A DNA stretch of 64,000 nt from Octopus vulgaris. Taxonomy: Eukaryota. Location: the NCBI GenBank assembly GCA_951406725.2, contig OX597827.1, positions 42,036,001 through 42,100,000 on the forward strand, in the 5' to 3' direction. This document shows, one piece after another, positions 5,241 through 60,430 of this stretch (its first letter is position 1; each line of letters opens with the position of its first letter). Made by a program: the position numbers and the translations under genes. The notes beneath the pieces were generated by a model that was given only the letters and a program-made list of their open reading frames with translations, did not search any database and was not told where the DNA came from.

Positions 5241-5336
<96 letters not shown>

Positions 5337-7524: not shown

Positions 7525-9062
7525 TTGAATGCCTTTAGTCTCACACAATCCTGAAGTTAATACAAAATTCAATGACAACATGGCAAACTGAACTCACAGC
7601 ATGGGGAGATAAGCTGGGAGAGGTAAATATCAAAAGAGTAATCTTCCAAAGGTGACAGTCTGTCACCTCTCCTATTTGTTGCCTCTATACTGCCACTAAC
7701 AAGCGTTTTAAGGAAGATGCGTGTGGGGTACATGCTAGGCTGGGTGAAAGTAAACAACCTGTTGTTTATGAGCGTTTGACGTCAACTGTGCAGATGATTC
7801 GCAAAGATATTGGCATGGAATCTGGGATCGAGAAATGTGGTGTAATGATTCTCAAAATGGGGAAAATCAGTAAAAGCCATGTGATCAAGCTAGAAAGTGG
7901 TGAAATATAAAGGAAGCTGGAGAGGATGGATATAAGTACCTGGGTATCATTGAAAGAGATCAGATGAATGAACACAAGATGGAAGAAATATACAGGAAAG
8001 GGTATTTGAGGAGAATTCGGCTTGTGCTCCAATCAAAGCTAAATGGTCGTCATAAAATTAGAGCAATTAACACGTGGGCAGTTGCTTTGATGAGATATGG
8101 GGCAGGAATAGTATCTTGGAAGAACCATGAATTACCAGAGATAGACCAGAAAATACATAAATTAATGACAATGAACAAGGAACGACACCCTAAGAGTGAT
8201 GTGTCAAGATTGTATGTAAAGAGGAAGGAAGGAGAACGGGTATTAGTGTGTAAGGGAAGAGGAGAATAGCCTGGCTTGGTATGTCAAGGGGTGTAAAGAA
8301 GAAATGATTGAATCAGTGAAAATGCAGAGAATCTTAAAATGAACGAAGCCGTAGATCCAACACAATTTCGGAAGACCAGTGAGAACAGATGAAGAAAATT
8401 TAGCAGGACAAGAAAATGCACAGTCAGTTCTTGAAGAGTAAGGATGAGATTGATCGGAATAGAACCTGGCAATGGCTGCAGAAAGGAGACTTAAAAGGTC
8501 CCACTGAGGCATTAGTGTACAGCACTCAAGAAGTTCTCAGAACAAACTACTCCAAGTATCACATTGATAAAAGCACTGATTCGCCACAGTGTATGATGTG
8601 CTCTGACATGGGATAAAATATAAACCATATTGTTAGTGTGTGCTGTAAGTTTGCACAACGCGAGTATAAAAGGGGACACTGTTGTGGGTTGTGGGGTAAA
8701 GCTAACCTCGAGAGAACCGAACAATGGTATGAACACAAGCCAGAGGGAGTAAAGCAAAACGAAGTACCAGGGCCTAGCTATTGAATTACAGAGGCTATGA
8801 AAAGTGCAGATAAATATTATCCCAGCAGTTGTAGGTGCATTGGAAACTATCCTTAAAGACCTGAACAGATAGATAGAGGAAATAGGCATAAAACTCAGTT
8901 TAGTACAGCTGTAGAAAACAGTGTTATTAGGGACAGCTAGGATACTTAGGAGGGTTCTTGGCATCTAAGTTTACTTGTTGTGGGCCGACAGGAGGGTTCT
9001 TGGTATCTAAGGTTACTTGATATAGCCCGATGTTAAGATTTTTTTCTTTTCCAGTGTATATG
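7525..9062 (+). pseudogene. Decayed R4/Dong-clade non-LTR retrotransposon (RT, CCHC knuckle, C-terminus)
   Basis: Motifs IFQGDSLSPLLF, YKYLG, INTWAVALMRYGAG, CMMC...NHIVSVC and KTVLLGTARILRRVL, with stops and frameshifts; ends in (TAA)n. Confidence 0.85.
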
Positions 9063-17780: not shown

Positions 17781-17785
<5 letters not shown>

Positions 17786-18103
17786 CAGCGTGGAAGGTGT
17801 TTATAAGCCATTTAAAAATACGCAAAACCATTAGATTCCTTCAACATTTAAATTAAATTTGTATCAAAATATTTTCGTCGCTTTGAAACCGCGGCCTGTT
17901 CAGGACGAAATTTCGTCAATGAACAAGTTGCGGTTGAAAGCGAGGAAAATATTATGACATGAATTAAATTTAAATGTTGAAGTGAAACTAATGGTTTCTC
18001 TGTGTATTTAAATGGCTTATAAACACCCTCCATGCTGCAGTTGTTTTTGTTTCAGCACACGATATAAGATCAAATCATATGCTATGCAAGTAGATTTCCT
18101 TAA
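17781..18103. mobile_element. Palindromic element, family P2, with HHR-like motifs in both arms
   Basis: Centre GACGAAA|TTTCGTC at 17910/17911; arms about 130 bp; unpaired tail to about 18103; flanked by (TA)n; homologous to 59887-60215. Confidence 0.8.
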
Positions 18104-23575: not shown

Positions 23576-24495
23576 TTACCTCCGCTCCACATCAAGCTGG
23601 GTTTGATGAAACAGCTTGGCAAAGCATTAAATTCTGATGAGGATTGCTTCCAACACATAGTCTCTACTCTCTCTGCTTTGTCCTTCGAGATGATCAAGGC
23701 AGGTGTGTTTGACGGAGCGCAGATTCGTACACTTGTACGTGTTCAAGAATTTGTCAGAACGATGAATGACAAGGAAAGGTCTACGTGGCTTTCACTTATG
23801 GCGGGAATAGAAAACTTTCTCGGTAATAAAACATCTGACAACTATGAAAGTATCGTAGCTAATATGTTGTCAGCTTTTCGTAATCTTGGACGTAACATGA
23901 GTGTCAAATTCCATTTCATGCACAGTTATCTTGATAGATTTCCTGAGAACCTAGGAACAGTAATTGACGAACAAAGCGAGCGGTTCCAATAGGACCTCAA
24001 GGCCATGGAAGAGCGTTACCAAGGAAGATGAGACAAATATATGATGGCAGACTACTATTGGAGCATTAAGCGAGATTGCTCCGAGACAGTCCACAGGCGC
24101 AAAAGCTTCAACCGCAAATTCCTGCATGAATAGACTGCAATCGAGCTTTGCCTTCTCATAGTAACTAATGTCTCATTTATCAATCAGTTTTATATAAACT
24201 ACAACCTTTCCTTATTAGGGAAAACGTTTCACATTGTGTTCTTGAATAAATTTATACTATCTTGTATAATCTCTTTTATTACCCAGTTAATACAAAGAGA
24301 GTTTAATCACAGATATCTCTTGGTAGACTATGACGTCAATGCGATGAAGACGAAATTTTGAGATTATGGAATACAGTGATTGTCAAACAATTAATGCATT
24401 TAGTTAAATAACCAGTTTCAGATCTGAAATCTATGCACTCAGACTTGGTTATCGAAGTGTTGATATCAATGCAACAAAAAGTTTGTTGACCAGTT
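23576..24495 (+). mobile_element. Chapaev3/Transib-related (CMC) DNA transposon 3' part
   Basis: LPPLHIKLGLMKQ, IKAGVFDGAQIR, MSVKFHFMHSYLDRFPENLG...DEQSERFQ, MMADY.W motifs; terminus-like GTTGACCAGT at about 24493. Confidence 0.75.
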
Positions 24496-24571: not shown

Positions 24572-24876
24572 TTCTTTACTGCCCACAAGGGGCTGAACAT
24601 AGTGGGGACAAACAAGGACAGACAAAGGGGTTAAGTCGATTAAATCGACCCCAATGCGAAACTGGTACTTAATTTATCGACCCCGAAAGAATGAAAGGCA
24701 AAGTTAATCCAAACATGAAAACACAAAGAGAAAACACAACAATGCGAGGACGTGGAACAAGTATAGTGTTATTGATCGCTCAGGAAAGGATAGAAAGATG
24801 GAGGATCTAACGTTTCGACGATCTGTCAGAAACATAGGAAAAGGAAAGATCCAAGGAAGGGAAGACAGAGGAAAAT

Positions 24877-24981: not shown

Positions 24982-25382
24982 CACATATACATATATGTAT
25001 ATATTTGTGTGTGTGTGTGTGTGTGTGTGTGTCGGGAGTGTACCGTTGGCGATTTTTTTCCCTCTGTCTTCCCTTCCTTGGATCTTTCCTTTTCCTATGT
25101 TTCTGACGAAGAGCGCTGCTCGAAACGTTAGATCCTCCATCTTTCTATCCTTTCCTGAGCGTCCAACAACATATGCTTGTTCCACGTCCTCGCGTTGTTG
25201 TGTTTTCTCTTTGTATTTTCATGTTTGGATTAACTTTGCCTTTCATTCTTTCGAGGTCGATAAATTAAGTACCAGTTTCGCATTGGGGTCGATTTAATCG
25301 ACTTAACCCCTTTGTCTGTCCTTGTTTGTCCCCACTATGTTCAGCCCTTTGTGGGCAGTAAAGAAATATATATATATATATA

Positions 25383-28908: not shown

Positions 28909-29304
28909 TGGAAGGTTTGGAGATGATGTACAGGTATTATATATTAGAAAAAATGAGGTAATCAGAAGATCGGATGGTTTATATTTACAGATATTTATTT
29001 ATATATTATATTTTTTACATATATATCATATCACTTAGATCATTAGCGCTTTCTCCCATTCTAGTGAGGTTTTCAAATCAAAATAATTCCTTTGTGGAGA
29101 ATTTTAATCATTTATACGAAACTCTATAAAATGATTAAAATTCCCCACAAAGGAATTATTTTGATTTGAAAACCCCACTAGAATGGGAGAAAGCGCTACT
29201 GATCTAAGTGATATGATATATATGTAAAAAATGTAATATATAAATAAATATCTGTAAATATAAACTATCCGATCTTCTGATTACCTCATTTCTTCTAATA
29301 TATA
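28908..29304. mobile_element. Palindromic element, family P1, complete hairpin
   Basis: Arms 28938-29116 and 29125-29304, 8-nt loop CGAAACTC; HHR-like motif in each arm (29042-29081 minus, 29161-29200 plus); in (TA)n. Confidence 0.88.
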
Positions 29305-46480: not shown

Positions 46481-46806
46481 TTATATTGTTAATTTTTAGA
46501 TTACTGAACTACTTCTCACACTTAAGTTTAATTTTGCAGCGCCATTACACATCAGCTTTTACACTATTTGCATACACTTCGAACTGACGATACGATTTCG
46601 TTTCGGAAGGGAGGCGAGTATACAGTGCTGATGAGCAGAAATAACTGCGAAATATCGATATCTATTGTTCTCGTTCAGTTCCAGGGCGATTTCGTTTCGC
46701 CTTTGAAGTATACCGTGTTTTTTTAAACTTTGTACATCTTTATAGTGTAGACTCCCGTGCATAATACCACAGCCACAAGCGTTTAAGCTTGCAGGTTCTT
46801 CATATC

Positions 46807-58699: not shown

Positions 58700-59357
58700 C
58701 ACAGAGGAGACAAACAAGGAGAGAAAAGACGGCGAGCTGGCAGAATCGTTAGCACGCCGGGCGAAATGCTTACACAGAATGTAGAAAGTAACGTAACACC
58801 AATGACTATATAATCCAACCAAAATATCTAAGTTACACAAACGTAAATGGAATAACCTTAAAATACATTGTACATATTCAAAGAAACTTCTTGGTTTAGT
58901 AGTACGGAACGGTTTTCCGGTATTGTTTTATTATTTTACTTGTTTCAGTCATTTCACGGTGGCCATGCTGGAGCACCACCCTTTAGTCGAAGAAAGTTAC
59001 CCATGGACTTATTGCCTGTAAGCCTGGTGCTTTTTTATTAGTCTCTTCTGCTGAACAGCTAAATTACAGGGACGCAAACGCACCAACATCGTTTGTCAAG
59101 CAATGGTGGTGGTGGGATAAACACACTCACAAACATATATACATACATACATACATACATACATACATACACACAAATATATATGGCGAGCTTGGAGATG
59201 GTGGTGATGCTGGCTTGTGCGATTTTGTGGTTTGTTGATATGACGAGAAGATCCATTGGGCCTCTAGCTGGTTCCCCGATCTTAAAGGTGTAATGTGTAT
59301 GTGTAATGATGGAGCGGCTGGTGTGGTGGTGATGCTATCTGGTGCGGTGGTCTTCCT

Positions 59358-59660
59358 CAGTACTTCATGGCCAACGATATTTTGTGAGTATGTCACGCCA
59401 CGTTTTTGGCATTGTCTGTTATCCCAATTGAGTGTCATATCTCTTACTTTAATATTGTTCATAGCTCGTGCTCTTGAAAATATGACACATAATTGGCCAT
59501 GAGAAAATACCAGTTGAGGCAAATGTATTCCAACTTTTTCAAATGTTTGCCCTTGAACCTTATTAATTGTCATTGAATATCCAAGTCGAAGTGGAAACTG
59601 TAGTCTGTTTAGTGTGAATGGAATATTTGCATCACTTGGGCTAAGTTTAATAATGGGAAT
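59358..59660 (-). pseudogene. Helitron Pif1-like helicase C-terminal fragment
   Basis: PFTLNRLQFPLRLGYSMTINKVQGQTFEKVGIHLPQLVFSHGQL...SRAR...NIVGHEVL. Confidence 0.88.
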
Positions 59661-59849
59661 TTCTTTCCGTTTCTTCTGGCATGCAGTTGTTGAAAATTTC
59701 TGGATACAAATGTACAAATTGAAATGCAAAAGAACGAAATAATAAATGGATTTATGAATGAAAGTTTGGTAATTGCGTTTATTTCCACCAAGCGACACTT
59801 ATTGCAGACATGTTTTAACTAACCCATACTATATACACACGCAAATACA

Positions 59850-59886
<37 letters not shown>

Positions 59887-59888
<2 letters not shown>

Positions 59889-60215
59889 CAATTGCAGCGT
59901 GGAAGGAAGGTGTTTATAAGCCATTTAAGAAACACTCAAAGAGCGTTAGATTCACTTCAACATTTAAATTTAATTTGCCAAAATATTTTCGTCACTTTGA
60001 GACCGTGGCCTGTTCACTGACAAAATTCCGTGCTGCATTTGAGCAGCTCAGACGCAGCACGGAATTTTGGCAAATTAAATTTAAATGTTGAAGTGAATCT
60101 AACGGTCTTTGTGTGTTTCTTAAATGGCTTATAAACACCTTCCAAGCTGCAATTGTTTTCGTTCCACCACACGATCTCAGATCAGATCACTTGCTATGCA
60201 AGTACATCTCCATAA
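59887..60215. mobile_element. Palindromic element, family P2
   Basis: Arms 59887-60044 and 60046-60157, unpaired tail to 60215; in (TA)n; the right arm lacks the HHR. Confidence 0.85.
59975..60023 (-). ncRNA. Type I hammerhead motif with G3:C8 core
   Basis: Minus strand TTGTCA-GTGAACA-g-GCCAC(ggtctcaaa)GTGAC-GAAAATATT-T-TGGCAA. Confidence 0.55.
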
Positions 60216-60227
60216 TATATATATATA

Positions 60228-60430
60228 AAGTTAATCCAAACACGAAAACAAAAAACACAACAACGCAAGGACGTGGAACAAATAAAGTATTATTGGACGC
60301 TCAGGAAAGAAGGGAAGAAGGAGGGTTTAACGTTTCGAGCGGAGCTCTTCGTCGGAAACATAGGAGAAGGAAAGATCCCGAGAAGGGAAGACAGAGGGAA
60401 AAAAATCGCCGGTGGTACTCACGAGGTCAC
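60228..60430 (-). mobile_element. Family P5 terminal element with minimal HHR (60325-60359)
   Basis: Homologous to 25040-25236; minus strand GTTT-CCGACGA-a-GAGC(tcc)GCTC-GAAACGTT-AAAC; ends GGATTAACTTT(AT)n. Confidence 0.7.

Follow-up and report, generated by a model that had tools for sequence, protein, structure and literature searches.

The window, a 64,000-nucleotide stretch of Octopus vulgaris DNA, contains a hammerhead-like motif with G at position 3 and C at position 8 of the core, and this motif belongs to a repeat, here called family A, that is an EN+ Penelope-like element (PLE). On the basis of sequence, we consider it probable that family A represents a PLE lineage with a fixed G3:C8, whose pseudo-LTR (pLTR) contains the minimal type I form of the hammerhead fold, and that intact copies keep the 3:8 tertiary pair and would cut slowly, as dimers or with assistance from a protein.

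The motif in the window and the consensus of its family

Read on the minus strand, the motif at 59975-60023 consists of TTGTCA as the 5' strand of stem I, the core GTGAACA with G3 at 60017 and C8 at 60012, a single G (9.1; 60010) and stem II (GCCAC/GTGAC), followed by GAAA, the palindrome AATATT, U16.1 (59982), U17 (59981) and TGGCAA; the predicted cleavage point lies between 59981 and 59980. This re-reading reproduces the layout proposed in the first-pass annotation, with GTGAACA between stems I and II and then GAAA, AATATT and a UH site, and adds the extra G between A9 and G10.1, which had gone unmentioned. A T-to-C change, at a site occupied by T in 43 of 44 family motifs, leaves the window copy with a C-A mismatch in stem II, and folding predicts another hairpin for it, with a stem II probability of 0.00. 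For intact family-A copies, the predicted minimum-energy fold has both stems, I and II, formed and the core left open (stem II probability 0.99-1.00), and in cofolding the predicted dimer joins via stems I/II rather than stem III. The window copy is a decaying passenger and probably inactive.

Two further copies near 17.9 kb had been described as sharing C8 but differing at position 3, and this holds: position 3 is C in the minus-strand copy (17864-17906, the decayed motif extending to 17909) and A in the plus-strand copy (17915-17958). One of the two has lost a base at the stem I/core junction and the plus-strand copy has a G10.1-G11.1 mismatch; because such damage accompanies them, we read C3 and A3 as decay and not as further variants.

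The 2.8-Gb genome was searched for exact matches to a 34-letter family-A pattern with positions 3 and 8 open, using the reversed pattern as control. This gave 1,354 matches (control 0), and the first 100 listed, scored by eye, comprised 95 G3:C8, three G3:U8, one U3:C8, one G3:G8 and no C3:G8. A looser pattern with positions 3, 7 and 8 open had 6,633 matches (control 0) in several loop II subfamilies, with G3:C8 in 94 of the first 100 listed, again by eye. The first-pass annotation had suggested that the swap marks a family, and the genome-wide consensus, among the first matches listed, is indeed G3:C8. In contigs from sequencing runs of four organisms, C8 made up 95-99% of contig depth, and no position 3 variant appeared among the rows listed. 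Stem I of at least four pairs lay beside the UH site in 94 of 115 distinct family-A motifs, which come from examined loci and are not a random sample; in the metagenome control this was the case for 0 of 56 core-plus-stem-II matches, and the metagenome scan for the motif thus gave chance matches only.

Family A has the core U4, G5, A6, A9, G12, A13, A14, A15.1, U16.1 and H17; intact copies also have G10.1-C11.1, the extra nucleotide 9.1 and stems I and II, and AATATT forms a palindromic 15.2-16.2 region whose sequence would allow a dimer. The literal CUGANGA consensus (C3, G8) does not describe it. A canonical-core pattern joined to the family-A stem III start found 9 genome matches (control 2), two of which were family copies; with only these two recovered genome-wide, a CUGANGA search misses nearly all of the family, as had been predicted. 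Among inserted family-A copies there was no excess of core conservation (differences of 5.3% in the core vs 3.1% in the flank). Because the core is no better kept than the flank in these copies, any selection would act on source elements only.

An Rfam scan of the window gave no hammerhead match among the matches listed (150 of 300), which were microsatellite-driven miRNA matches. Neither an intact G3:C8 copy nor a canonical C3:G8 sister (see below) had an Rfam hammerhead match, and because the canonical sister is missed too, the miss of the G3:C8 copy is not due to the swap. The top miRNA-like score in the window among the matches listed fell on a long near-perfect inverted repeat at 29042-29200, which is probably another palindromic insert. 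Members of a different repeat family, whose minimal hammerhead is of the canonical type (CTGACGA...GAAACGTT), lie in the window at 25097 (+) and 60361 (-), with a decayed inverted arm near 24790-24850 (-); the copy at 60361, in which U4 is changed to C, abuts the insert described below. Another canonical C3:G8 hammerhead-like motif, with an extra G and a palindromic stem III region, lies at 46622 (+).

An EN+ Penelope-like element and its solo pLTR

The motif in the window lies within a palindromic family-A insert at about 59887-60215 (326 nt when counted from 59890), detected as a self-inverted match in a (TA)n tract. Its inverted arm (59887-60046, minus strand) runs from the unit 5' end to an inner 3' end without a tail and bears the hammerhead motif; its direct arm (60048-60215, plus strand) ends with a tail of ~57 nt and has lost the core; the two stem I strands on either side of the loss are alike, and the junction lies near 60069/60070. 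At 60124-60213 (+), the direct arm includes the first 30 codons of an RT-GIY-YIG ORF (MAYKHLPSCNCFRS...), matching the ORF start at position 5334 of the tandem autonomous copy L251. A further family-A insert, at 17781-18103, is more decayed, likewise has two arms and shares 79% identity with the first. Genome-wide, a first look with the 59887-60215 insert gave 3,576 candidates, the best 40 of them at 86-100% identity.

GIY-YIG remnants were located upstream of family-A copies, and a protein search with one of them found 4,088 candidates, at least 150 of which were scored as matches; many of these lie in long open frames. In all ten long-ORF regions examined (nine distinct places) the G3:C8 motif adjoins the open ORF. 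The longest RT-GIY-YIG open frame has 1,025 codons and an RYVDD motif; its GIY-YIG domain scores 25.4 bits vs the Pfam cut-off of 22.6. The Pfam scan of the family-A ORF gave no RT family match, and a named relative of this ORF carries the label reverse transcriptase domain. The nearest named relative of the element protein, at 54% identity, is labelled Octopus vulgaris, and no relatives of the ORF were found in the viral contigs searched.

The family-A motif is found ~1 kb 3' of the RT-GIY-YIG stop codon and, in the pLTR-ORF-pLTR tandem L251, 92 nt 5' of the ORF ATG. The order in L251 is an acceptor-like site (5221), the core (5242), the predicted cut (after 5277), the ATG (5334), the inner end (5363) and the tail end (5425), after which the remainder of the ORF follows. 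The window insert corresponds to the 5' 207 nt of such a unit, arranged as head-to-head arms. An inversion is also present in L249, and the pLTR has two 3' ends with an optional tail: arm 3' ends cluster at unit positions 148-151 (45/146) and 206-207 (66/146). Flank words of at least 8 bases were held in common in 9 of 29 inserts and in 48 of 812 mismatched pairs, which fits short target duplications; these and AT-rich targets are expected of an EN+ PLE and are found in family A. We conclude that the repeat is an EN+ PLE and, because its pLTR, inversion and tail anatomy is that of PLEs (PMC8557442; PMC11167929), that the insert is a solo pLTR and not a MITE or a tandem retrozyme. A non-LTR retrozyme, which forms short head-to-tail tandems, was likewise rejected, as copies are seen dispersed, single or head-to-head. 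Opposite-strand family-A pairs 2.7 kb apart were considered as an autonomous element and rejected, being passengers in another large palindromic repeat. Palindromic repeats with family-A inserts as passengers (L061 and L062) have arms of 1.9-2.4 kb at 95-99% identity and occur in many near-identical copies.

The 5' ends of the arms show no enrichment at the predicted cut site. Just one of 146 family-A arms starts there and 49 of 146 reach the unit 5' end or beyond, in loci that were mostly chosen for the motif. An acceptor-like CTAAC/pyrimidine/YAG site ends 20 nt upstream of the core, and it is at this site (L251:5200-5225) that solo copies have their sharp 5' end. In 8 of 14 non-extended copies ending in AG, the base before the AG is G, in contrast to the C or T of source copies (p about 0.01 at 25%); this G may be a copied cap marking a transcription start. 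Contigs of four runs that hold the repeat and are RNA-like (their RNA status is a guess) contained no spliced joint, RNA ends or strand information. Two insect metatranscriptome runs (X19 and X20) contained 0.10-0.19 of sampled words of the repeat, a figure that is a word share alone.

Elsewhere in the window, a 223-codon frame at 59127-59798 (-) presumably represents the end of a Pif1/Helitron-type helicase, and the frames at 7904-8269 (+) and 23576-23992 (+) look like the end of a non-LTR reverse transcriptase and a DNA transposase fragment, respectively.

Sister families and the 3:8 pair

One canonical-core match led to family B, which combines C3:G8 with the G9.1 and GTCRC/GYGAC stem II of family A. 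Family B has 562 matches (control 0), and among the first 100 listed 78 are C3:G8 and none is G3:C8. A wider pattern revealed two more families, D with C3:G8 and E with U3:A8, as well as group C, an older and diverse set of G3:C8 motifs. Group C came to light through the match list of a search for other large G3:C8 families whose stem III starts differently; no such family was found, with 1,042 matches vs 1,567 in the control. Family E has 3,530 matches (control 0), with U3:A8 in 89 of the first 100 listed; in family E (e.g. L315-L344) stem I is only 3 bp, and a Penelope-type ORF remnant is present at L323. Families B, D and E each have their own GIY-YIG ORF remnant upstream. In a tree of the last 290 residues of the ORF, with at most 34 database relatives covering at least 150 positions and without group C (no ORF in the examined loci), A branches next to (E,(B,D)); support is 84% for the grouping of all four families and 100% for each of the inner splits. 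Where the ORF is known, A is 33-49% identical to the other groups.

An alignment of 21 motifs, drawn from five groups, has GC at the 3:8 pair in 10, CG in 6 and UA in 5, with no unpaired case; in stem II, too, two pairs have changed in both partners. The covariation score was reached by none of 500 shuffles; the motifs were picked by hand for intactness and kinship of the rows inflates the score, so that the signal amounts to about three independent events. Positions U4, G5, A6, A9, G12, A13, A14 and A15.1 are invariant across all 21. At H17, scorable motifs have U in 103/103 cases in family A, C in 23/23 in families B and D, and U throughout family E; because family E also has U17, the link between positions 3 and 17 represents one or two events.

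Because sister families with C3:G8 or U3:A8 share one stem II scaffold, the pair covaries in three ways. The first-pass annotation had stated that positions 3 and 8 form a Watson-Crick pair in the active fold, and the occurrence of G:C, C:G and U:A among related families supports this as sequence complementarity; C3:G8 and U3:A8 in the sister families are what a maintained Watson-Crick pair would predict. Because these families keep C-G or use U-A, the swap from C-G to G-C is likely a natural compensated variant. Its direction, from C3:G8 to G3:C8, is taken from the general hammerhead consensus and not from outgroups.

Possible function of the motif and comparison with known systems

G8 provides the catalytic 2'-OH of the hammerhead, and G8C alone costs about 10^5-fold in activity, which C3G partly rescues (PMC8495972). 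In family A the catalytic 2'-OH at position 8 would stay in place because position 3 changed along with position 8. Formation of stem III would require two motifs, joined via their AATATT palindromes; minimal PLE hammerheads cleave weakly and as dimers (PMC4209133). U17 in place of C17 likely prevents a G3-C17 mispair, and G3-C8 is described as more active with G17 than with C17 (PMC3884650, data not displayed there). By analogy with the anole Poseidon element, whose solo copies are scattered with the hammerhead uncut, reverse transcription would begin at two sites, ~150 and 207 nt into the RNA, and copy back to the RNA 5' end. In the anole element, uncut RNA is the insertion template and cleavage is dispensable for insertion in vitro (PMC11167929). 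Whether hammerheads serve PLEs or ride along is stated to be open (PMC8557442).

In the older G3:C8 motifs the core forms a palindrome with the 5' strand of stem II, and this suggests, as a hypothesis, a single templated event as the source of both changes; family A would later have broken this palindrome at the free position 7. A broader scenario is that one PLE clade swapped the 3:8 pair repeatedly (C:G, G:C, U:A) while active, that it reached G3:C8 via a single quasi-palindrome correction that skipped dead intermediates and was stabilised by the change from C17 to U17, and that the ribozyme cleaves in vivo. We put this forward tentatively, as a possibility that we would sooner doubt than accept. 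If repeated swaps and in vivo cleavage were true, self-cleavage would be under long-term selection, and large G3:C8 families would be systematically missed in animal genomes.

We also considered that the fold and its 3:8 pair are kept for a non-cutting job, such as protein binding or a translation-start structure upstream of the ORF, with negligible cleavage in vivo. The location of the motif 92 nt ahead of the ATG and the derivation of inserted copies from uncut RNA, with the single arm of 146 that starts at the cut site, are consistent with such a role. So are the functions beyond cleavage left open in PMC4209133, the lack of RNA ends at the cut site in PMC11167929, and the viral type I hammerheads that are tied to translation, there through the catalytic core (PMC13725137). 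The catalytic positions, however, are invariant in the 21 motifs despite the divergence of the ORFs between family A and the other groups, and we regard a purely non-cutting role as unlikely. A quasi-palindrome correction with the 5' strand of stem II as its template may explain the simultaneous rise of G3 and C8, and it could be the whole explanation if the ribozyme has been dead since and the compensation is a by-product. In group C the core and the stem II 5' strand together are almost perfectly palindromic (GTGACC A GGTCRC), 20 of 25 motifs have C at N7 (in a search that excluded A at N7), and the rival hairpin is dominant in two of five decayed copies folded. Yet family A broke the palindrome at the free position 7 while keeping G3, C8 and the core, the rival-hairpin probability is 0.00 in its intact copies, and a dead ribozyme leaves the separate U3:A8 family unexplained; this account appears highly improbable to us.

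The palindromic nature of the insert and the lack of an Rfam hammerhead match, both for the intact copy and among the 150 of 300 window matches listed, would also fit a motif that resembles a hammerhead by chance and lies in a MITE or some other DNA repeat. That the motif is physically joined to RT-GIY-YIG ORFs refutes a look-alike in a MITE; together with the Rfam miss of the canonical sister, the absence of stem I from all 56 chance matches and the three-way covariation, it leaves chance with next to no probability. We retain the reading of a minimal hammerhead with a kept G3:C8 pair.

This reading places family A close to the minimal hammerheads that Cervera and de la Pena (2014, PMC4209133) describe in metazoan PLE pLTRs, with which it shares the pLTR position, the nucleotide between 9 and 10.1, G10.1-C11.1, the palindromic 15.2-16.2 region, dispersed single or opposite-strand copies and natural 3:8 covariation. 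All four emergent features listed there are present in family A. The accessible part of that paper does not report G3:C8, whereas in the octopus genome it is the consensus of an expanding lineage, with C:G, G:C and U:A among related families. Natural U3:A8 has been published (PMC3088659; PMC4209133, Schistosoma); Perreault et al. 2011 (PMC3088659) thus share a compensated natural 3:8 change, with U3:A8 alone named in the part available. In the literature searched, the coverage of which is incomplete so that a prior report is possible, we found engineered G3:C8 variants only and no natural one. Among these is the C3G/G8C double mutant of a PLE hammerhead that depends on the element's protein for cutting; the double change brings back part of the cleavage (PMC11167929). 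That element, Poseidon PAc of Anolis carolinensis (Frangieh et al. 2024), has in common with family A a hammerhead at the pLTR-ORF junction, two internal RT starts, an optional tail, AT-rich targets and an uncut RNA template. It differs in that G3:C8 is an engineered mutant there and the ORF starts at stem II (PMC11167929); family A, unlike PAc, has its ATG 57 nt after the predicted cut, a tail of about 57 nt and an endonuclease with a Cys linker. Nematis/Neptune-type EN+ PLEs (Craig et al. 2021, PMC8557442) share the C-terminal GIY-YIG with a CxxC linker, the pLTR, an inverted 5'-truncated copy and the tail; judged by eye and not from a tree with reference sequences, the short family-A linker resembles the Nematis rows of Fig. 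S2 in that paper. The CUGANGA descriptor given there would not match family A, and motif counts from searches demanding CUGANGA are too low. With copies in the thousands and sources that have open frames, a G3:C8 family occurring in nature would be the natural counterpart of the G8C/C3G rescue, and compensation of one pair in three ways across sister lineages speaks for selection on active-site geometry; families A, B/D and E are a ready natural series for one assay. This case goes beyond the known systems in copy number, in having source elements with open frames and in the three types of pair that related lineages show.
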